Assembly (NCBI GenBank): GCA_951406725.2
Contig: OX597817.1
Span: 27,900,001 to 27,964,000, forward strand
Direction: 5' to 3'
Length of the DNA stretch: 64,000 nucleotides
DNA from: Octopus vulgaris
Taxonomy: Eukaryota
The translations under genes and the position numbers were made by a program. Below are positions 3,803-61,250 of this stretch, in pieces. The notes under the pieces were generated by a model. The model did not search any database. It saw only the letters and a list, made by a program, of their open reading frames with translations, and was not told the DNA's origin. Positions within the stretch are counted from its first letter, which is position 1; each line of letters starts with the position of its first letter.

Positions 3803-5683
3803 CATACATACATACATACACACACGCGCGCGCGCTATCACATACACACATATATGTATATATGTATCTTTGTAATGAATGACTTAGAAATGGAGAAAGA
3901 CATAGATCTTAGATATAAAAAATGAGCCATTTGGGGTTAGAAACATTGCGGAAAAATGTGAAGTTCTTCGAGCCGATTGGCCGACTTCTTCATTGAAAAC
4001 TAAAGTTGGAACTCGAACAATCCAGATAAAATAGTATTAAGAGATTGATGGCATTGTGCAAGTAGCGTCACAGAGAAACTCTACTGCTGGCCATGTTTGT
4101 TGTGTCAACCAAAAGCTAATTAGTCGTGGACAGATGGAGGCTATAATAATTATAAAAGAATCCTGAGTGACTGTAAGCATCACGGTAAATCAGTGAGTCA
4201 TTTAAGTAGTTATAACAGTTTGAAAACTTTCGAACTGTACAATATTGTGACAGCTATTACTGAATTTGCTAAACTGCAGAAAGAACGGTATTAAAAAAAA
4301 GCAGCTGAAGAAAATAGACAATGTTTAAAGCAGTTAACAATTGCAGTGCTATATCTGTGTAAAAAAGAGTTGCCTTTACGCAGACATGAAGAAGGAAGTC
4401 ACAGCCTTAATAGAGGAAGTTGCCGTGCACTATTGCTGTGCTTTGCTGAAATCGGCAGCGTGTTTCCTTCTAGAATTTTAACTAAAGTGGTGTCGAAACA
4501 GTTTTCAGGAGTCTCAAGTGCAACACAAAATACTCTAATACAAGCGATTGGAAATGATGAAATTAGAAGCGAAGTTGATAAAGCTCAGTTTATGTCTGTA
4601 CAATCCGACGAAACTACAGCCTGTGCAATGCATGGCCAACTGTCGATCATAATAAGATATGTATATGAAGACAAAGCATGTGATCGATTTCTTGGATTCT
4701 ATGAAGTGTTGATGATAAAAGTGCTACATGACTGGCTGATGTGATCGCAGCTGCGTTGAACGACAGTGGAGCTACAGTTAAATTAGTGAGCCAGAATTAC
4801 GACGGAGCAGTTGTAGTAGCACGAACGCTAAACGGAGTACAGAGTAACCTAAGAGAAAAAGGATTTATATGTGCGCACTTCATTCACTGCTATGCACTTA
4901 AATTTAACTTAGTCTTGAGTAAAAGTACCGAGAAGGTGAGTAGAGTAAAAATGTTGTGTTTTTTTTTTCTTGTCATTTACGCGCATTTACTAAATATATT
5001 ATCTACCAGTACCATGGAGAAAAACTTTTTCAAGCAGTTTAATATCAGTATTCCAATCACTGTACGAAAGAAGATGGTGGTATAGATCAAGAACTGTGTC
5101 ATCAATAAAACTATCGCATGAAAACTTGAAAAATGCCTTCTAGTATTCTAGGCTCTAGAGATGAAGATAAACTTTGTCAAACACAATCTATTGGCAAAGT
5201 TGAATGATTTCACATTTATGTTTTTTTTTTTATCAAATGCTTTCATAACATAATTTCTCAGGTTGGAAAAGTCTTTGATATCCTACAGAGTAAGTTACTC
5301 GCCATAAAGTATGGACAGAGAAAACTAAATGACTCCATTCATTGTGCTGAAGGTTGTCGTAAGGACGAATATTATAAAAAAAACATTCTGCGCGATACAA
5401 CAGCTGCCATTGAACAGGCAGATAAGTCCAATCTTCCTCCTAGAAATACTCAGTGGTGCACAAATTAATTACAAAACTACCTATTTTGAGATAATTGACA
5501 ACATTCTAATGACTTAACGACAGAGATTTTCTGGCAGTCAGGAGTATGCATTGTTTGAATTACTAGACAATAATAAGTTTGAAGAGTTTGTTAACTCGTT
5601 TCCCATGCAACATATAAACTCTCTAGAAAACAAGCAACCCTTTAGTTTTTAGTGTAAGTGCTTAGTGAACGAGCTAAAATATA

Positions 5684-6087
5684 TACTCTTTTACTCTTTT
5701 ACTCTTTTACTTGTTTCAGTCATTTGACTGCGGCTATGCTGGAGCACAGCCTTTAGTCGAGCAAATCGACCCTGGGACTTATTCTTTGTAAGCCCAGCAC
5801 TTATTCTATCGGTCTCTTTTGCCGAACCGCTAAGTTACGGAGACGTAAACACACCAGCATCGGTTGTCAAGCAATGCTAGGGGGACAAACACAGACACAC
5901 AAACATATACAAACACACATATATATATACATATATACGACAGGCTTCTTTCAGTTTCCGTCTACCAAATCCACTCACAAGGCATTGGTCGGCCGGGGCT
6001 ATAGCAGAAGACACTTGCCCAAGATGCCACGCAGTGGGACTGAACCCGGAACCATGTGGTTGGTTAGCAAGCTACTTACCACACAGC
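5684..6087 (-). mobile_element. tRNA-derived SINE, family A (octopus OR-like, CORE-type)
   Basis: Minus strand: A-box/B-box head (gtggtaag...ggttcagtccc), ttgggcaagtg core, internal CA/TA repeat, tail gctccagcatagccgcagtcaaatgactgaaacaag plus (TAAAAGAG)n; near-identical copy at 35590-35960. Confidence 0.85.
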
Positions 6088-6317
6088 AATATGTGACAAT
6101 TATTCGGTTGCCACAATAAAACTCCGAGTTATCGAGACAATCAGAAAATGCTGCTTTGGGATTGCCTCGATAACTGACGAGAGCAGTTATCCGTCCCGAC
6201 ATCCGAAACTCGGAGTCTTATTATGGCAACTGAATAATTGTCACATATTATATTACAGATAACTTCCTCTATTTACATAATATTGAGGTCTCATTCATTC
6301 TTCTGTTGTCTTAGCAT

Positions 6318-6320
<3 letters not shown>
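6088..6320 (+). mobile_element. Short PLE-like fold-back element with hammerhead motif
   Basis: ~43-bp inverted repeat (6088-6130 vs 6207-6249) bracketing an HHR core; 3' end runs into (TA)n. Confidence 0.6.
6169..6222 (+). ncRNA. Type I hammerhead ribozyme motif (weak stem II)
   Basis: GATAA-CTGACGA-[stem II]-GAAA-CTC g GAG-TC-TTATT; predicted GUC cleavage after 6217. Confidence 0.6.
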
Positions 6321-6378
<58 letters not shown>

Positions 6379-6638
6379 TAGCAATTAAGGACAACTACTT
6401 AATAAGGAAAACTTAACAAGAAATTGTCAGGTAGATAGCGTAAAAACCTCATAAGAGAAAAAATTTCGAAAATAATTATTTCTTATTGAACATAATAATT
6501 TATATATAGGGATTATACATACATGCCAGAGCATTATACATACATGCCAAACGCTAAGAGGGACAATTAGTCATTTCTACAAAAATATTACTAATCCCAC
6601 CGAATGCAATTTTTCAAAGTAAGACATTTAAAAAATAT

Positions 6639-6686
6639 AGACCTGTATCACAGTGATTTCATACTTACGTACTCATCAGCAGGCCT
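6639..6686 (-). ncRNA. Type I hammerhead ribozyme
   Basis: Reverse complement of the motif at 7317-7364. Confidence 0.85.
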
Positions 6687-7316
6687 GAATGCATTATAAA
6701 TAAACAACGACCCTGCCCGCTTAAGTCGATCAGCTAACTGTTCAACATCAACGAAGCACATGGGTGAGTTTACATATATTACATCCGGTCAAATGGCAAA
6801 CTTTTACGAATTGCATTTCGGGAGAGGAAAAGTTTTTTCGGAATAAAAATTTAGCAATTAAGGACAACTACTTAATAAGGAAAACTTAACAAGAAATTGT
6901 CAGGTAGATAGCGTAAAAACCTCATAAGAGAAAAAATTTCGAAAATAATTATTTCTTATTGAACATATTAATTTATATATAGAGGGCATTATACATACAT
7001 GCCAGAAGGCATTATACATACATATATATAAATTAATATGTTCAATAAGAAATAATTATTTTCGAAATTTTTTCTCTTATGAGGTTTTTATATCTACCTG
7101 ACAATTTACTTGTTAAGTTTTCCTTATTAAGTAGTTGTCCTTAATTGCTAAATTTTATTCCGAAAAAAACTTTTCCTCTCCCGAAATGCAATTCGTAAAA
7201 GTTTGCCATTTGACCGGATGTAATATATGTAAACTCACTCATGTGCTTCGTTGATGTTGAACAGTTAGCTGATCGACTTAAGCGGGGCAGGGTCGTTGTT
7301 TATTTATAATGCATTC

Positions 7317-7364
7317 AGGCCTGCTGATGAGTACGTAAGTATGAAATCACTGTGATACAGGTCT
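7317..7364 (+). ncRNA. Type I hammerhead ribozyme
   Basis: AGGCCTG-CTGATGA-GTAC gtaa GTAT-GAAA-TCAC t GTGA-TA-CAGGTCT: 7-bp stem I, intact core, 4-bp stem II, palindromic stem III, AUA cleavage after 7357. Confidence 0.88.
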
Positions 7365-7796
7365 ATATTTTTTAAATGTCTTACTTTGAAAAATTGCATT
7401 CGGTGGGATTAGTAATATTTTTGGTAGAAATGACTAATTGTCCCTCTTAGCGTTTGGCATGTATGTATAATGCCTTCTGGCATGTATGTATAATGCCCTC
7501 TATATATAAATTAATATGTTCAATAAGAAATAATTATTTTCGAAATTTTTCTCTTATGAGGTTTTTACGCTATCTACCTGACAATTTCTTGTTAAGTTTT
7601 CCTTATTAAGTAGTTGTCCTTAATTGCTAAATTTTTATTCCGAAAAAAACTTTTCCTCTCCCGAAATGCAATTCGTAAAAGTTTGCCATTTGACCGGATG
7701 TAATATATGTAAACTCACCCATGTGCTTCGTTGATGTTGAACAGTTAGCTGATCGACTTAAGCGGGGCAGGGTCGTTGTTTATTTATAATGCATTC

Positions 7797-7844
7797 AGGC
7801 CTGCTGATGAGTACGTAAGTATGAAATCACTGTGATACAGGTCT
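7797..7844 (+). ncRNA. Type I hammerhead ribozyme (second tandem copy)
   Basis: Identical to 7317-7364, 480 bp downstream. Confidence 0.88.
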
Positions 7845-7980
7845 ATATTTTTTAAATGTCTTACTTTGAAAAATTGCATTCGGTGGGATTAGTAATATTT
7901 TTGGTAGAAATGACTAATTGTCCCTCTTAGCGTTTGGCATGTATGTATAATGCCTTCTGGCATGTATGTATAATGCCCTC

Positions 7981-8012
<32 letters not shown>

Positions 8013-9234
8013 GATATACATATATATATATATTGACACTGGTTTCAAAAGGTAGAAGTCAATCAACTCCATTTTAGAATTACTGTATAAATAAGAGTTG
8101 GCTTCCGCTATGCCGGAATCCATTAAACTAATTGAGCTAGTGCTGGCCATCCCCTTAACATCAGTCACTAATGAGAGAAGTTTCTCAACGTTGGATAGAA
8201 TCCGCTCATACCTGAGAAGCACAATGGCCCAAGAATGGCTGTCTTCACTCGCTCATTTTTCCAGTGAGATAAAACATCTTGAACGACTTAGACAACAAGA
8301 AGGAGCTGCATGGCAAGATATTACATGAATTCACCATGAAACCAAGACGACTGGAGTTTCAGTATAAATGAAGTAATTTTTATATTAAAACTATATTTCT
8401 TTCGCATTCTTTCGTTAGAAGCGGCAAACTTGCTTGCTGTTGAAATATCAGTGCACAAATAAGCCTACGATGTGCACATTATAAGCCTTACCTTCTTTTA
8501 CATGTGTCTTACGCGAAATCTGTAATGAGCCCGAGTGACGCTGATGACCTGGTGTTGACTCTGATATGGGTTATGCTTATACGTTTGTTTGTGTGCGCGT
8601 GTGTGTATATATAAATATATATATATATGTATGTAGTTGTGTACGTGTATGTATATGTATGTGCAGATATAAATATATGGATATGTGTATCTATATGTCT
8701 ATATTTAAGTGTGGATGTATGTATGCATGTATATGTGTATATATAGGTGTAGGGAGGTGTGATTCGCCATTGGCGATATAGATGTGGAGCGATCAGACTG
8801 TATGCAAGCTGCCTTAGTCTTGAGGTCTCCGATGACAGATTTCTGGCGAGGTTGTCATCCGACCATAAATTATACGAACTACGGATGAAATTGACCATAT
8901 GGGCGGGTGGGCTAACGTCCCTTGTGTGAGCGTATGCACGGCCGGGTATGTGTGTGAATGTGTGTAGACGCATCCCGATTTAAACTACTTAGCCAAACAA
9001 CCTTTCACCCGCCAGACATTTTAGCCAGCATATATATCTTTCCCTTCCTTTTTCTAGTACCATTCATTGTCTTAAGCCTAATTTAACTTAATCTCTCCCT
9101 GTCCATTCGTTCAATTCCCCTACATTTTTTTTAATCAACAGTTATTTGTCTATATTTACAAATTTTTGCAATTCTTATTATGGAAAGATAATTATAATTG
9201 AAACTTGTTGCAACGTTTCATTCCCTAACCAGAC

Positions 9235-24889: not shown

Positions 24890-25645
24890 TTTTTTACTGG
24901 CCGCAAGGGGCTACACAGAGGGGACAAACAAAGACAGACAAACTGGTACTTATTTAATCGACCTCAAAAGGATGAAAGGCAAAGTCGACGTCGGCGGAAT
25001 TTGAATTCAGAACGTTAACGGCAGGCGAAATACCTATTTCTTTACTGCTCACAAGGGGCTACACACAGAGGGGACAAACAAGGACAGACAAAGGCATTAA
25101 GTCGATTACGTGCGTAACTGGTAACCTCAGTGCGTAACTGGTACTTATTTAATCGACCCCGAAAGGATGAAAGGCAAAGTCGACCTCGGCGGGATATGAA
25201 CTCAGAACGTTAACGGCAGACGAAATGCCTATTTCTATTTCTTTACTACTCACAAGGGGCTAAACACAGAGTGGACAAACAAGGACAGACAAAGGGATTA
25301 AGTCGATTACATCGACCCTAGTGCGTAACTGGTACTTATTTAATCGACCCCGAAAGGATGAAAGGCAAAGTCAACCTCGGCGGAATTTGAACTCAGAACG
25401 TAACGGCAAACGAAATACCTATTTCTTTACTGCCCACAAGGGGCTAAACACAGAGAGGACAAACAAGGACAGACAAACGGCTTAAGTCGATTATATTGAC
25501 CCAGTGCGTAACTGGTACTTATTTAATCGACTCCGAAAGAATGAAAGGCAAAGTCGACCTCTGTGGAATTTGAACTCAGAACGTTAGCCGTAGACGAAAT
25601 ACGGCTACGCATTTTGCCCGGCGTGTTAATGTTTCTACCAGCTAG
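24890..25645 (-). mobile_element. Head-to-tail array of four SINE family B units
   Basis: cacaaggggct..acacagag..ggacaaacaaggacagacaaa and gaaaggcaaagtcgacctcggcgg each recur four times; only one 5' head (near 25645). Confidence 0.85.
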
Positions 25646-31909: not shown

Positions 31910-32592
31910 TGATTGATTGATTCTAGTTTCAGCTCATGAGCTGTGGCCATGCTGGGGCACCGCCATTTGGTGTTGCTACTTGGTTTTACTTCACGAAAGC
32001 GTTTTAGCAACTGCCATTTGGTGCATGAGAGAGTTCGATGCAGCTGCCCTCATCTGCACCTCCTGCCGTGAAGTTGGTTCATCTGGGACACCTGACAGGA
32101 AGAGATCCAGTTCCATTTTAAAGACATCTGCATCCACCCCATGCAGGTCTCTCAGGTTCTTCGGGAGGATATTGAAGAGCTGTGGGCCACGGAAGCCCAG
32201 GCTATCACAGTATCTTGTCCTACATCTTGATGGCAAATTTGGAGTCCTAGACACCACGCAGTGGCGCCCAGTTCTGGCATTTGTGTAACTCTCGATGCCA
32301 AAGTTTGGGACACGTCCCTCCAGGATCTTCCAGATGTATATTATGGCATATCTTTCCCGCCTACGCTCCAAGGAATATAGTTTTAATCTCTTGAGTCTTT
32401 CCCAGTAGCTTACATTCTGCATAGAGGCTATCTTCTTCGTGTAGCTACGCTGGATCGCCTCGAGCTCTGTGATCAACTTGACACTGGATGGTGACCATAA
32501 CTGAGAGCAATAGTCAAAGTGGCTTAGGACAAGTGTCCTCCAGAGGACCATCATGGTTTCTTGTTCTCTTGTTCTAAAGGTTCTGAGAATCT
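31910..32592 (-). mobile_element. 5'-truncated young CR1/L2-group LINE
   Basis: Open ORF 31991-32554 (LSHFDYCSQLWSP...YWERLKRLKLYSLERRRERY), short 3' UTR and (CAAT)n tail. Confidence 0.88.
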
Positions 32593-37909: not shown

Positions 37910-38100
37910 AATCCAAATATGAAAACACAAAGACGTGAGGACGTGGAACAAGTATAGTGTTATTGGACGCTCAGAAAAGGAAAGAAAGAAGGAAGATTTA
38001 ACGTTTCGAGCGGAGGGCTTCGTCAGAAACATAGGAAAAGGAAAGATCCAAGGAAGGGAAGACGGAGGAAAAAATCGCCAGCGATACACACGCGGTCACA
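37910..38100 (-). mobile_element. Short dispersed element with a minimal PLE-type hammerhead (37997-38029)
   Basis: TTT-CTGACGAA-GCCCTCCGCTC-GAAA-CG-TT-AAA on the minus strand; homolog at 61040-61250. Confidence 0.65.
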
Positions 38101-39519: not shown

Positions 39520-40386
39520 GTATAGGAAAATAAGTAAGTTGTCATAATAGGACTCAGAGTTTCAAATGACAGACCTAAGAGTTAGGATGCACTTTCATCG
39601 GCTATTGTGACAATAGACGCTATGAAAAAAACATTGAATAAAAGTGAAGTTACTCTAATAGACAGGAAAAATTATAAAAGTTAGAAAAAAAAATTATAAT
39701 AAATACATGCAACCATATTCTCACAATACCTATAAAACCTTCTGCGTTCATAAAGTCTACATACGTACACACTCACGCAAATATGTATATATATATATAT
39801 ATATAAGCCCATACTCACACAAAACATATACGTGCATATACGTGCTCATATATACATCTCTACACGCACACACATTAGGTTGGGTGTAGAGGTGGGGTAT
39901 GTGGGTAGGCTGAGGGTGGGGTTTGAGGTGGGGTGTGTAGGAGTGGATGTAAGTGATGGAGTGGGGGTGGGATGGGATGGATAGGGAAAGAGGGGTTGGA
40001 TTGTGTGGGATGGGGTTACGTGGGAGGGGTGAATATGAAGGGAGAGGGGAAGGGGAGAATGTGGGTAGGAGTGAAGAGAAGAGAGAAGAATAGTAGGAGT
40101 GAAGAGAAGTTGAAGTTAGAGCAAGAAAGGAGAGGTGGGTGGGTGGGTGTAAGTAGGTGAGAGAGAGAGAGGAAAGGGGAAGAGAGTTGAGCGCATGTGG
40201 CACAAAGGAGCGAAGAGAGACGATTAATCCCTCTTTACAGTGCAAACGGAAGTCCGGGTGGCCCCTGTGCAAGGACAATCCAAACAGAGGTTGCAAAGAA
40301 TGACCGGTAGTGCGGAAATGGCGCGAGAACGGGGTGTCATTGCCGAGTCGAATGTCTCGAAGATGTCCCCGAACTGGTCAGCCAAG
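39520..40386 (-). mobile_element. Penelope-like element 3' fragment (GIY-YIG endonuclease C-terminus, pyrimidine-rich UTR, HHR)
   Basis: LADQFG/HLRDIRLGNDTPFSRHFRTTGHSLQPLFGLSLHRG...LIVSLRSFVPHALNS matches the PLE LxxRFxEH...PVxxHF...H...LIxxLxxxxPxGLN pattern (one frameshift). Confidence 0.75.
39546..39606 (-). ncRNA. Type I hammerhead motif with CCGAUGA core variant
   Basis: AATAG-CCGATGA-AAGTG..CCTAA ctc TTAGG..CATTT-GAAA-CTC t GAG-TC-CTATT. Confidence 0.7.
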
Positions 40387-48018: not shown

Positions 48019-48101
<83 letters not shown>

Positions 48102-48283
48102 AAAGGGCTTAGTAAAATAAATTACTTTGCCGCATACTGAACTCATTAGAAATAGCAGCTAAAAAACTTTTTTAAAAACTATTTCTAATACTTAAAGAAA
48201 ACCTCTCTCATATAGTGCTTGCTCAACTCAACTCACGAAAGTTTGGGGGTAAAGACATCAAAAAATCAAATGCAAAGTTTATT

Positions 48284-48335
48284 TGAGAACGTACGTTTCA
48301 AGATTAGTCAACACGACACTTCTATCATCAGCTCA
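48284..48335 (-). ncRNA. Type I hammerhead ribozyme, first of ten minus-strand copies spaced ~560 bp
   Basis: Reverse complement of the motif at 53838-53889; core appears invariant across all units. Confidence 0.75.
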
Positions 48336-51300
48336 GAAACTCCTTGGTTTGGATTTGAAAACACTGAAAGTGAGAGCATACCCTTTCGGCTTCTCATCGC
48401 TTTCGAAGATCTGCTCGTAACTGACAGTGCCAACAAACTCAAATATGCAAGCGAAGAATTTCTGTTCTCCCCTTTCCACCAGCGTGGGTTAAAATCAGCA
48501 AACACTATGCTTATTTCGGTAAAATCCGAAGCATTAATTAGAGGGAGATTAATTATAATTTCAACAATTGAGGGTAAAATTAATTAATTATTAATCAATT
48601 TCACCAAGTGTTCAGTATGCAAAGGGACCATTTAAGGCGAATTCAAATTATTACATTATATAAAAGGGCTTAGTAAAATAAATTACTTTGCCGCATACTG
48701 AACTCATTAGAAATAGCAGCTAAAAAACTTTTTAAAAACTATTTCTAATACTTAAAGAAAACCTCTCTCATATAGTGCTTGCTCAAATCAACTCACGAAA
48801 GTTTGGGGGTAAAGACATCAAAAAATCAAATGCAAAGGTTATTTGAGAACGTACGTTTCAAGATTAGTCAACACGACACTTCTATCATCAGCTCAGAAAC
48901 TCCTTGGTTTGGATTTGAAAACACTGAAAGTGAGAGCATACCCTTTCGGCTTCTCATCGCTTTCGAAGATCTGCTCGTAACTGACAGTGCCAACAAACTC
49001 AAATATGCAAGCGAAGAATTTCTGTTCTCCCCTTTCCACCAGCGTGGGTTAAAATCAGCAAACACTATGCTTATTTCGGTAAAATCCGAAGCATTAATTA
49101 GAGGGAGATTAATTATAATTTCAACAATTGAGGGTAAAATTAATTAATTATTAATCAATTTCACCAAGTGTTCAGTATGCAAAGGGACCATTTAAGGCGA
49201 ATTCAAATTATTACATTATATAAAAGGGCTTAGTAAAATAAATTACTTTGCCGCATACTGAACTCATTAGAAATAGCAGCTAAAAAACTTTTTTAAAAAC
49301 TATTTCTAATACTTAAAGAAAACCTCTCTCATATAGTGCTTGCTCAAATCAACTCACGAAAGTTTGGGGGTAAAGACATCAAAAAATCAAATGCAAAGGT
49401 TATTTGAGAACGTACGTTTCAAGATTAGTCAACACGACACTTCTATCATCAGCTCAGAAACTCCTTGGTTTGGATTTGAAAACACTGAAAGTGAGAGCAT
49501 ACCCTTTCGGCTTCTCATCGCTTTCGAAGATCTGCTCGTAACTGACAGTGCCAACAAACTCAAATATGCAAGCGAAGAATTTCTGTTCTCCCCTTTCCAC
49601 CAGCGTGGGTTAAAATCAGCAAACACTATGCTTATTTCGGTAAAATCCGAAGCATTAATTAGAGGGAGATTAATTATAATTTCAACAATTGAGGGTAAAA
49701 TTAATTAATTATTAATCAATTTCACCAAGTGTTCAGTATGCAAAGGGACCATTTAAGGCGAATTCAAATTATTACATTATATAAAAGGGCTTAGTAAAAT
49801 AAATTACTTTGCCGCATACTGAACTCATTAGAAATAGCAGCTAAAAAACTTTTTTAAAACTATTTCTAATACTTAAAGAAAACCTCTCTCATATAGTGCT
49901 TGCTCAACTCAACTCACGAAAGTTTGGGGTAAAGACATCAAAAAATCAAATGCAAAGGTTATTTGAGAACGTACGTTTCAAGATTAGTCAACACGACACT
50001 TCTATCATCAGCTCAGAAACTCCTTGGTTTGGATTTGAAAACACTGAAAGTGAGAGTATACCCTTTCGGCTTCTCATCGCTTTCGAAGATCTGCTCGTAA
50101 CTGACAGTGCCAACAAACTCAAATATGCAAGCGAAGAATTTCTGTTCTCCCCTTTCCACCAGCGTGGGTTAAAATCAGCAAACACTATGCTTATTTCGGT
50201 AAAATCCGAAGCATTAATTAGAGGGAGATTAATTATAATTTCAACAATTGAGGGTAAAATTAATTAATTATTAATCAATTTCACCAAGTGTTCAGTATGC
50301 AAAGGGACCATTTAAGGCGAATTCAAATTATTACATTATATAAAAGGGCTTAGTAAAATAAATTACTTTGCCGCATACTGAACTCATTAGAAATAGCAGC
50401 TAAAAAACTTTTTTAAAAACTATTTCTAATACTTAAAGAAAACCTCTCTCATATAGTGCTTGCTCAAATCAACTCACGAAAGTTTGGGGGTAAAGACATC
50501 AAAAAATCAAATGCAAAGGTTATTTGAGAACGTACGTTTCAAGATTAGTCAACACGACACTTCTATCATCAGCTCAGAAACTCCTTGGTTTGGATTTGAA
50601 AACACTGAAAGTGAGAGCATACCCTTTCGGCTTCTCATCGCTTTCGAAGATCTGCTCGTAACTGACAGTGCCAACAAACTCAAATATGCAAGCGAAGAAT
50701 TTCTGTTCTCCCCTTTCCACCAGCGTGGGTTAAAATCAGCAAACACTATGCTTATTTCGGTAAAATCCGAAGCATTAATTAGAGGGAGATTAATTATAAT
50801 TTCAACAATTGAGGGTAAAATTAATTAATTATTAATCAATTTCACCAAGTGTTCAGTATGCAAAGGGACCATTTAAGGCGAATTCAAATTATTACATTAT
50901 ATAAAAGGGCTTAGTAAAATAAATTACTTTGCCGCATACTGAACTCATTAGAAATAGCAGCTAAAAAACTTTTTTTAAAAACTATTTCTAATACTTAAAG
51001 AAAACCTCTCTCATATAGTGCTTGCTCAAATCAACTCACGAAAGTTTGGGGTAAAGACATCAAAAAATCAAATGCAAAGGTTATTTGAGAACGTACGTTT
51101 CAAGATTAGTCAACACGACACTTCTATCATCAGCTCAGAAACTCCTTGGTTTGGATTTGAAAACACTGAAAGTGAGAGCATACCCTTTCGGCTTCTCATC
51201 GCTTTCGAAGATCTGCTCGTAACTGACAGTGCCAACAAACTCAAATATGCAAGCGAAGAATTTCTGTTCTCCCCTTTCCACCAGCGTGGGTTAAAATCAG

Positions 51301-53837
51301 CAAACACTATGCTTATTTCGGTAAAATCCGAAGCATTAATTAGAGGGAGATTAATTATAATTTCAACAATTGAGGGTAAAATTAATTAATTATTAATCAA
51401 TTTCACCAAGTGTTCAGTATGCAAAGGGACCATTTAAGGCGAATTCAAATTATTACATTATATAAAAGGGCTTAGTAAAATAAATTACTTTGCCGCATAC
51501 TGAACTCATTAGAAATAGCAGCTAAAAAACTTTTTAAAAACTATTTCTAATACTTAAAGAAAACCTCTCTCATATAGTGCTTGCTCAAATCAACTCACGA
51601 AAGTTTGGGGGTAAAGACATCAAAAAATCAAATGCAAAGGTTATTTGAGAACGTACGTTTCAAGATTAGTCAACACGACACTTCTATCATCAGCTCAGAA
51701 ACTCCTTGGTTTGGATTTGAAAACACTGAAAGTGAGAGCATACCCTTTCGGCTTCTCATCGCTTTCGAAGATCTGCTCGTAACTGACAGTGCCAACAAAC
51801 TCAAATATGCAAGCGAAGAATTTCTGTTCTCCCCTTTCCACCAGCGTGGGTTAAAATCAGCAAACACTATGCTTATTTCGGTAAAATCCGAAGCATTAAT
51901 TAGAGGGAGATTAATTATAATTTCAACAATTGAGGGTAAAATTAATTAATTATTAATCAATTTCACCAAGTGTTCAGTATGCAAAGGGACCATTTAAGGC
52001 GAATTCAAATTATTACATTATATAAAAGGGCTTAGTAAAATAAATTACTTTGCCGCATACTGAACTCATTAGAAATAGCAGCTAAAAAACTTTTTTAAAA
52101 ACTATTTCTAATACTTAAAGAAAACCTCTCTCATATAGTGCTTGCTCAACTCAACTCACGAAAGTTTGGGGTAAAGACATCAAAAAATCAAATGCAAAGG
52201 TTATTTGAGAACGTACGTTTCAAGATTAGTCAACACGACACTTCTATCATCAGCTCAGAAACTCCTTGGTTTGGATTTGAAAACACTGAAAGTGAGAGTA
52301 TACCCTTTCGGCTTCTCATCGCTTTCGAAGATCTGCTCGTAACTGACAGTGCCAACAAACTCAAATATGCAAGCGAAGAATTTCTGTTCTCCCCTTTCCA
52401 CCAGCGTGGGTTAAAATCAGCAAACACTATGCTTATTTCGGTAAAATCCGAAGCATTAATTAGAGGGAGATTAATTATAATTTCAACAATTGAGGGTAAA
52501 ATTAATTAATTATTAATCAATTTCACCAAGTGTTCAGTATGCAAAGGGACCATTTAAGGCGAATTCAAATTATTACATTATATAAAAGGGCTTAGTAAAA
52601 TAAATTACTTTGCCGCATACTGAACTCATTAGAAATAGCAGCTAAAAAACTTTTTTAAAACTATTTCTAATACTTAAAGAAAACCTCTCTCATATAGTGC
52701 TTGCTCAAATCAACTCACGAAAGTTTGGGGGTAAAGACATCAAAAAATCAAATGCAAAGGTTATTTGAGAACGTACGTTTCAAGATTAGTCAACACGACA
52801 CTTCTATCATCAGCTCAGAAACTCCTTGGTTTGGATTTGAAAACACTGAAAGTGAGAGCATACCCTTTCGGCTTCTCATCGCTTTCGAAGATCTGCTCGT
52901 AACTGACAGTGCCAACAAACTCAAATATGCAAGCGAAGAATTTCTGTTCTCCCCTTTCCACCAGCGTGGGTTAAAATCAGCAAACACTATGCTTATTTCG
53001 GTAAAATCCGAAGCATTAATTAGAGGGAGATTAATTATAATTTCAACAATTGAGGGTAAAATTAATTAATTATTAATCAATTTCACCAAGTGTTCAGTAT
53101 GCAAAGGGACCATTTAAGGCGAATTCAAATTATTACATTATATAAAAGGGCTTAGTAAAATAAATTACTTTGCCGCATACTGAACTCATTAGAAATAGCA
53201 GCTAAAAAACTTTTTTAAAAACTATTTCTAATACTTAAAGAAAACCTCTCTCATATAGTGCTTGCTCAAATCAACTCACGAAAGTTTGGGGTAAAGACAT
53301 CAAAAAATCAAATGCAAAGGTTATTTGAGAACGTACGTTTCAAGATTAGTCAACACGACACTTCTATCATCAGCTCAGAAACTCCTTGGTTTGGATTTGA
53401 AAACACTGAAAGTGAGAGCATACCCTTTCGGCTTCTCATCGCTTTCGAAGATCTGCTCGTAACTGACAGTGCCAACAAACTCAAATATGCAAGCGAAGAA
53501 TTTCTGTTCTCCCCTTTCCACCAGCGTGGGTTAAAATCAGCAAACACTATGCTTATTTCGGTAAAATCCGAAGCATTAATTAGAGGGAGATTAATTATAA
53601 TTTCAACAATTGAGGGTAAAATTAATTAATTATTAATCAATTTCACCAAGTGTTCAGTATGCAAAGGGACCATTTAAGGCGAATTCCACGCTGGTGGAAA
53701 GGGGAGAACAGAAATTCTTCGCTTGCATATTTGAGTTTGTTGGCACTGTCAGTTACGAGCAGATCTTCGAAAGCGATGAGAAGCCGAAAGGGTATGCTCT
53801 CACTTTCAGTGTTTTCAAATCCAAACTAAGGAGTTTC

Positions 53838-53889
53838 TGAGCTGATGATAGAAGTGTCGTGTTGACTAATCTTGAAACGTACGTTCTCA
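53838..53889 (+). ncRNA. Type I hammerhead ribozyme (inverted arm)
   Basis: TGAG-CTGATGA-tAGAagtGTCgtgttGACtaaTCTt-GAAA-CGTACG-TT-CTCA; palindromic stem III ACGTACGT, GUU site after 53885. Confidence 0.75.
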
Positions 53890-54475
53890 AATAACCTTTG
53901 CATTTGATTTTTTGATGTCTTTACCCCCAAACTTTCGTGAGTTGAGTTGAGCAAGCACTATATGAGAGAGGTTTTCTTTAAGTATTAGAAATAGTTTTTT
54001 TAAAAAGTTTTTTAGCTGCTATTTCTAATGAGTTCAGTATGCGGCAAAGTAATTTATTTTACTAAGCCCTTTTATATAATGTAATAATTTGAATTCGCCT
54101 TAAATGGTCCCTTTGCATACTGAACACTTGGTGAAATTGATTAATAATTAATTAATTTTGCCCTCAATTGTTGAAATATATATATATATATATATATCCA
54201 CTAATTATTTCAGTCTACTGGAGGAATAAAGAAGGAATGAGGTATTTTTGCCTCTTGGCTGAAACAGCTGTAAGACATTTTCCCAATTTATATTCCTGTA
54301 TGTTATATTTTAACAATTACTGGTATCTTTATATATTAATATATTATATATGTAAAGCATATGTTATACATGTATGTATATTCTTGAAGTTGTCATTTTG
54401 GTAAATAAATAAATTGACATAATATAGTGTCTAAAAGTTGATGAACCACCTATTGATCCCCTCTATTTTCTTACT

Positions 54476-61039: not shown

Positions 61040-61250
61040 ACGCGACCGCGTGTGTATCGTTGACGACTTTTTTTCGTCCGTTTTCCCTTCCTTGGGTCTT
61101 TCCTTTTCCTATGTTTCTGACGAAGAGCTCTGCTCGAAACGTTAAATCCTCCTTCTTTCTTTCCTGTCATGAGCGTCCAATAACACTTGACTTTTTCCAC
61201 GTCCTCGCGTTGTTGTGTTTCCTCTTTGTGTCTTTATGTTTGGATTAACT
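61040..61250 (+). mobile_element. Short dispersed element with a minimal PLE-type hammerhead (61114-61146)
   Basis: TTT-CTGACGAA-GAGC tct GCTC-GAAA-CG-TT-AAA; 3' end runs into (TA)n; homolog at 37910-38100. Confidence 0.7.

Follow-up and report, generated by a model that had tools for sequence, protein, structure and literature searches.

The window analysed here is a stretch of 64,000 nucleotides of the Octopus vulgaris genome (contig OX597817.1, positions 27,900,001 to 27,964,000), and coordinates given without a locus name are positions within it. Between two (TA)n tracts lies an insertion made of two arms of a 480-bp repeat set head-to-head, with a minus-strand arm at 6379-7023 and a plus-strand arm at 7023-7991. 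TRF reports a tandem period of 480 bp with 2.0 copies across 7023-7991, and the GC fraction is 0.32 across 6001-8000. The features of the locus are listed below, with unit positions counted from the predicted cut.

6321-6375, no strand: left half of the (TA)n target microsatellite (TRF)
6379-7023, minus: inverted arm of ~1.3 units (locus L059), with its 3' end at 6379, which is site B (unit position 272)
6639-6686, minus: type I hammerhead copy of the inverted arm, with cleavage predicted at 6646/6645
7023, no strand: head-to-head junction of two 5'-truncated arms, one base common to both (junction gap -1)
7023-7991, plus: direct arm of 2.0 units, with its 3' end at 7991, which is site A (unit position 154)
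7317-7364, plus: type I hammerhead, first direct copy, predicted cut at 7357/7358 after AUA
7358-7837, plus: complete 480-nt unit bounded by predicted cut sites, the putative monomer or circle
7455-7501, plus: 23-bp internal duplication immediately upstream of site A
7507-7632, plus: segment between the fixed arm ends, counterpart of the Penelope "tail"
~7507-7513, plus: site A, TA-like (unit 150-156)
~7629-7632, plus: site B (unit 272-275)
7797-7844, plus: second direct hammerhead copy, predicted cut at 7837/7838
7992-8033, no strand: right half of the (TA)n target microsatellite (TRF 7981-8033)

The unit at 7358-7837 carries 0 substitutions relative to the family majority, and the monomer boundaries proposed in an earlier note on this DNA agree with the predicted cut sites. 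A frame scan found no open frame of at least 150 aa overlapping 6379-7991. An open frame with reverse transcriptase (RT) and GIY-YIG domains is absent at the locus and inside the arms of every insertion that we fetched, and no LTR pair is apparent in the arm structure. The repeats flanking the locus are ones that we take to resemble octopus SINEs.

We searched the genome (2.8 Gb, 227 contigs) for further copies. The 480-bp unit gave 217 matches, mostly at 95-100% identity, in the 39 best loci scored of 976 candidates. In these loci, full units (n=89) carry on average 3.0 substitutions relative to the window unit, in a sample biased to young copies. A tight pattern of the hammerhead core has 492 exact matches genome-wide, compared with 0 for the reversed control, and the insertions are short and scattered across most large contigs. 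Conservation of the core and covariation in stems I and II, described below, support the earlier suggestion of a young family of hammerhead arrays. The locus represents a single insertion of this dispersed, young, non-coding hammerhead family. The family's relatives include a subfamily with a 476-bp form and an A-U pair closing stem II, as well as a subfamily, 82% identical, in which G-C closes stem II and stem I has two double changes. A related 470-bp family has 65-73% identity and a long stem II (40 scored of 3175 candidates).

Assembled contigs from four runs, whose type we guessed, reach 12-21 of the 30 bins, and neither joints nor pile-ups of ends appear in them. One 513-nt run contig holds one unit plus ~30 nt, as expected alike from tandem DNA, a multimer or a circle. 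The junction sequence of a circle equals the genomic tandem junction, so the back-splice reads that the earlier note had hoped for cannot reveal one. Run X5 (guessed type, other individual) contains one low-depth contig with five A>G differences in 36 nt, corresponding to 7391-7426. G is rare at these five sites among genomic copies (4/240, 0/247, 0/250, 0/251 and 1/251), and the cluster, seen in one contig, hints that the hammerhead strand may undergo A-to-I editing.

The hammerhead motif, its folding and its conservation

The motif is present with complete type I cores at all three reported places, namely 7317-7364, 7797-7844 and, inverted, 6639-6686. In the first direct copy, stem I pairs AGGCCTG (7317-7323) with CAGGTCT (7358-7364) over 7 bp and is open at its ends. 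The core consists of CTGATGA (CUGAUGA, 7324-7330) and GAAA (7343-7346). Stem II (GTAC-GTAA-GTAT, 7331-7342) consists of 4 bp capped by a GUAA loop, and its closing pair, 10.1-11.1, is G·U. Stem III (TCAC-T-GTGA, 7347-7355) lies in a palindromic span (7346-7356) around one U, with TA at 7356-7357. The term "textbook", used previously for this hammerhead, holds for the complete core but not for the rest: the cleavage triplet is AUA instead of GUC, stem II closes with G·U, and an Rfam scan of the window returned 0 families at gathering score. A loose core pattern matches the window 19 times, compared with 3.4 +/- 1.8 in shuffles.

The isolated 48-nt motif folds no better than shuffles (z -1.4), and the lowest-energy monomer fold has stems I and II with stem III missing. 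When two copies were cofolded, the minimum was a double hammerhead at -30.5 kcal/mol, versus -12.4 per inactive monomer. An active monomer with a 4-bp stem III and one pair opened is feasible in folding at -9.4 kcal/mol. Within a folded two-unit transcript, stems I and II have probabilities of 0.89-0.99 and stem III of 0.02; a kissing form that keeps stem I in cis would be a pseudoknot, which is beyond what the folding program can score. The idea that the one-nucleotide loop of stem III favours dimeric folding between adjacent units is thus matched by the in silico cofold minimum, but a monomer is also possible and the partners are not restricted to neighbours. In these models, the stem III palindrome would pair any two molecules.

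The earlier note suggested looking for stem covariation and core conservation among genomic copies. MAFFT failed to co-align hammerheads with short and long stem II, and pairs were counted in two separate alignments whose rows are hand-picked distinct haplotypes (11 and 21 of 58) of related copies. In the 11 short-form rows, 97.7% of cells are paired and 3 pairs have two-sided changes (4/500 shuffles), all of which come from a single subfamily row. The 21 long-form rows have 95.5% of cells paired, with two-sided changes in 4 pairs and 24 cells (0/500 shuffles for cells, 104/500 for pairs). Controls with slid alignments gave 17-46% paired. Stems I and II covary across sister subfamilies; stem III has no two-sided change in either the short-form or the long-form alignment. 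Its palindrome is retained, with a centre of 1 or 2 nt, in 657 and 1017 genome matches, compared with 25 and 1 in controls. The core is almost invariant in the young family, with 1 substitution in 2467 cells versus 1.0% elsewhere, in loci partly picked by the core pattern. In the 470-bp family, whose loci were selected independently of the core, core substitutions amount to 2.7% versus 5.9% elsewhere. Judged from these alignments, the hammerhead motif is under constraint, and its ribozyme activity is predicted.

Paired arms with two fixed ends

We scored insertion ends in three samples: the 39 best loci, 20 stretches from the core-pattern list and 8 further insertions. For L022, L031, L044, L095, L109 and L233, which automatic classifiers mis-scored, blast ends were used. 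Among the 39 best loci, 29 have one A and one B end, 2 have a B end with another end, and 8 are one-armed; L031, counted with the A+B loci, has its B end shortened to unit position 260. The 20 stretches comprise 14 A+B insertions (two with a B arm of few bases), 3 with a fixed and another end, and 3 stretches holding single arms, and the 8 further insertions comprise 5 A+B, 1 with A and another end, and 2 single. Overall, 48 of 54 two-armed insertions are A+B, the other 6 have one fixed and one other end, and there are no AA or BB combinations. Independent 50:50 end choice would give 0.5^48, or ~4e-15. The two sites are ~120 nt apart.

(TA)n is the target of nearly all family insertions. A target duplication longer than 4 bp is scorable at one locus only, since (TA)n sites are unscorable: in L044, which is not in a TA tract, 14 bp of target are duplicated, the last 4 nt of them in common with the A end, and the B end shows no overlap. 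The 5' starts of the arms are scattered over the unit, and where the arms join there is either an overlap of 0-9 nt or a short filler. Of 90 arm starts, 0 fall on the cut itself (unit position 1). Positions 1-13 hold 7 of 90 starts, versus 2.4 expected (p 0.011), a weak excess in an interval chosen post hoc; the 90 include 4 starts contributed by L022 (a relic) and L108 (a secondary junction). As a separate observation, different hammerhead-repeat families lie side by side in TA-rich neighbourhoods at L022:128-1081 and L165:96-840.

If the repeat were a satellite spread by DNA-level recombination, its hammerhead would be incidental or dead. The tandem organisation, one long array, the lack of an Rfam match in the window and the weak monomer folding agree with a satellite. 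However, the insertions are dispersed and short with fixed 3' ends and variable 5' ends, and the 14-bp target duplication, the TA targeting and the stem covariation also speak against such an origin, which is largely refuted and which we consider extremely improbable.

The substitutions carried by the units bear on how many templates were used. Across 46 loci, at sites covered by at least 2 units, 67 substitutions are found in all units, 104 in one and 16 in some. There are 49 substitutions that occupy every unit of both arms, and 5 of these 49 are private to one locus. In L225-L226, a single insertion, a 517-bp A arm is joined to a B arm of ~31 near-uniform units (15 kb), and both A-arm marker substitutions are present in all B-arm units except the first, partial one. 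The array at L047:1849-6016 has the haplotype order X Y Y X Y Y with two apparent recombinant units, a period-3 order that is compatible with a trimeric template or template switching. Together, the one-A-one-B rule and the shared haplotypes point to priming of both target strands on one RNA. Because the arms cross intact cleavage sites and none starts at the cut, the template was either a circle or a multimer left uncut; a linear monomer that had already been cut does not fit. The uniform arrays could alternatively reflect a uniform source locus or later homogenisation.

Shared haplotypes would also be accounted for by fold-back or self-priming of the second arm on the first cDNA, as suggested for Adineta Penelope elements (PMC3846280), and some junctions do have short palindromes or duplications (L025, L032, L034). 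We regard this origin as improbable, as the place in the unit where one arm starts bears no relation to where the other does, either arm may be the longer one (A 3560 and B 400 in L038; A 446 and B 3340 in L021), and a self-primed arm would still have to stop at the other fixed site.

Penelope-like elements and a proposed route of insertion

Passages on Penelope-like elements (PLEs) describe copies with an inverted 5'-truncated copy, a tail on one end and a microsatellite bias (Craig et al. 2021, 10.1101/2021.04.23.441226). Two internal RT starts define the tail, both strands are nicked at AT-rich sites, and a protein dimer is predicted (Frangieh et al. 2024, PMC11167929). To look for partner enzymes, we queried the octopus genome with PF01541, a Neptune-like fragment and an endonuclease of a third type. 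This yielded three young Penelope-like families, whose intact frames measure 753 aa, 781 aa and 775 aa (loci L140-L157, L188-L204 and L264-L278). The 753-aa family matches RVT_1 and GIY-YIG and has a Cx4CxxC motif before the nuclease, a motif assigned to Neptune, Nematis and Naiad (Craig et al.).

All three autonomous families end in (TA)n at two sites. In the 753-aa family, one end of each kind is present in 3/3 loci with both ends scored, the ends being 53 nt apart, and in the 781-aa family this holds for 2/2 two-armed loci, with ends 38 nt apart. The 14 two-armed loci of the 775-aa family include 11 clear and 2 probable cases and 1 unscored, with ends 32 nt apart. These elements likewise form tandems with the same ends. 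As the footprint of the 480-bp family is that of autonomous Penelope-like elements, copying by a Penelope-type enzyme is likely. Our comparison of termini covered the three young families, out of thousands of PLE candidates; between them and the 480-bp unit there are only short AT-rich matches of 40-110 nt and no related termini.

Some features of the autonomous families are recorded in their own right. In the 753-aa and 775-aa families a second, distinct frame lies upstream (380 aa and ~420-450 aa, respectively), unlike the single ORF described for canonical PLEs, and the 380-aa frame has 0 Pfam matches. The terminal repeats of the same two families contain hammerhead-like folds (L142 ~4920-4965, L257 ~2430-2470) whose cores depart from the canonical sequence: UUGACAA, in which U3 and A8 may be swapped, and CCGAAGA. 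The hammerhead core is canonical in an older copy, L161.

We propose that the 480-bp repeat is a non-LTR retrozyme of the animal kind that reaches TA microsatellites by borrowing a Penelope-like enzyme (RT/GIY-YIG) to copy it, with both cut strands priming on one RNA, probably a circle; we give this reading a probability of roughly 0.65. The paired fixed A and B ends are observed, and we infer the acting enzyme and the paired priming. Read-through tandem transcripts would be cut at each hammerhead, predicted to act probably as a double hammerhead, and by analogy with other retrozymes a host ligase would close the 480-nt monomers into circles. The enzyme would nick (TA)n on both strands and start at A on one strand and at B on the other, both being fixed internal sites. 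Each cDNA would pass the cleavage site for a variable length, in keeping with the read-through observed in the arms. The cDNA ends would then be joined head-to-head through 0-9 nt of microhomology or short filler by a presumed pathway, the junction structure itself being observed. Several findings sit poorly with our proposal: the three autonomous families show no related termini, the ~120 nt between A and B exceeds the published tail of 30-40 nt, stem III has a probability of 0.02 in the folded two-unit transcript, 1/9 of the predicted Xenopus retrozyme dimers cleaved in vitro (10.64898/2026.07.22.740005), the anole PLE inserts uncleaved RNA in vitro (PMC11167929), and a monomeric circle leaves the period-3 order of L047, with its apparent recombinants, unexplained.

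The same enzyme and two start sites might instead have copied an uncleaved linear multimer, the hammerhead being a retained pLTR feature that serves some other step and the circle being unnecessary. Arms that cross intact cut sites and the count of 0/90 starts at the cut suit such a template, and L047 would suit the copying of a mixed source array. Autonomous elements too make tandems with the same ends, and the anole PLE inserts unprocessed, uncleaved RNA in vitro, where its hammerhead is dispensable (PMC11167929). On a linear template, however, 5' truncation should shrink arrays in each round, yet there are arms of 8 to ~31 near-uniform units; five locus-private variants fill both arms, and the hammerhead core is strongly conserved. 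We think this explanation unlikely, though it deserves to be taken seriously.

Relation to known elements and to other repeats of the window

Animal non-LTR retrozymes were defined by Cervera and de la Pena (2020, PMC7229834), who showed circles and dimer action and named PLEs as likely movers; retrozyme circles are known from coral, mussel and axolotl (PMC7229834). Li, Clavereau and Pollet (2026, 10.64898/2026.07.22.740005) tied retrozymes to PLEs by distribution and pLTR similarity, and 1/9 of their predicted Xenopus retrozyme dimers cleaved in vitro. Like metazoan non-LTR retrozymes as these passages describe them, the octopus family consists of AT-rich, non-coding tandem units with one type I hammerhead each, occurs as monomers to multimers, has a target duplication longer than 4 bp where seen, and shares its genome with PLEs. 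Like axolotl retrozymes, it has a weak or palindromic stem III suited to dimer action. The unit length of 480 bp is inside the range of 51-972 bp given in 10.64898/2026.07.22.740005 and just over the 150-450 bp of PMC7229834.

Unlike metazoan retrozymes as described, the octopus insertions, known here from DNA alone, have head-to-head arms with one A and one B end and are targeted to TA. The words "inverted" and "opposite" are absent from the passages of PMC7229834, and the two-arm design is likewise absent from those of 10.64898/2026.07.22.740005. No PLE pLTR homology was detected for the 480-bp family against three families, compared with 21 PLEs matched by Xenopus families.

With Neptune/Naiad-type endonuclease-positive PLEs the family shares a bias to microsatellites, tandems that are partial, a 5'-truncated copy in inverted orientation, a tail confined to one end, internal RT start sites and a hammerhead within the repeat. 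It differs from them in having no ORF and in repeating the whole unit; the tail is also longer (~120 nt versus 30-40), and the arms reach tens of units. Non-autonomous Chlamys elements such as MRC1 resemble their autonomous partners at the 3' end, whereas the 480-bp family shows no such match in three families. Unlike the 480-bp family, the Chlamys clade reportedly has no hammerheads (Craig et al. 2021).

In full-text literature, we found no report of cephalopod retrozymes or of retrozymes with paired priming; the family may be listed in repeat databases, supplements or subscription papers. The 480-bp repeat likely adds to the known animal retrozymes, an element class already known. Mobilisation of retrozymes by PLEs has so far been argued from co-occurrence and pLTR similarity, and here the insertion footprint itself matches autonomous elements of the same genome. 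For the question of how inverted, tailed Penelope insertions arise and whether they need the hammerhead and a circle, the system offers three candidate enzymes with intact frames and a 480-nt substrate on which two start sites are predicted.

The window holds a second hammerhead insertion of the same two-arm, two-end, TA-target design at ~48091-54177, made of a 560-bp family. There, ~10 minus-strand units end at an A site of their own and a short plus arm ends at a B site. The A and B sites of this family are ~100 nt apart, and it has 1889 candidates genome-wide. At 20 other loci, found with a query that favoured B arms, 12 insertions are A+B, 2 have B with another end and 6 are single-armed. 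By eye, the 560-bp ends look like those of the 480-bp unit.

The earlier note saw no similarity between the two units outside the core and called the families independent. We also obtained no real match between them with blastn, and there are indeed two families, but their independence is not established given the shared design and a weak colinear similarity. When aligned from the cut site, the 480-bp and 560-bp units are weakly colinear, which is not significant (22/300 shuffles as high), and similarity in the segment between A and B is not significant either (106/1000 shuffles). The 470-bp sister aligned with the 560-bp unit scores above all 300 shuffles (0/300 as high).

We offer a bolder model only tentatively, with confidence short of even. 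A Penelope-like enzyme dimer would hold one 480-nt circle at A and B, prime both nicked TA strands and roll both ways, laying down up to 15 kb per event without partner homology, and the 480-, 470- and 560-bp families would be of one ancestry. If true, this two-site circle model would explain both the movement of retrozymes and the inverted Penelope insertions with a tail on one end.

Further repeats were noted elsewhere in the window. Another repeat contributes minimal hammerhead-like motifs, their stem III palindromic, at 38004-38026 (minus) and 61117-61139 (plus), and we take them to be probable pLTR remnants of an older Penelope family. The frame at 39757-40377 (minus) has no Pfam match at E 0.1, and its start presumably resembles the end of a Penelope GIY-YIG domain. 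A C-terminal fragment of a LINE-type reverse transcriptase, similar to frames in L092, occupies 31991-32590 (minus), and a SINE-like unit is repeated in 3.5 tandem copies of 184-191 bp at 24941-25602.
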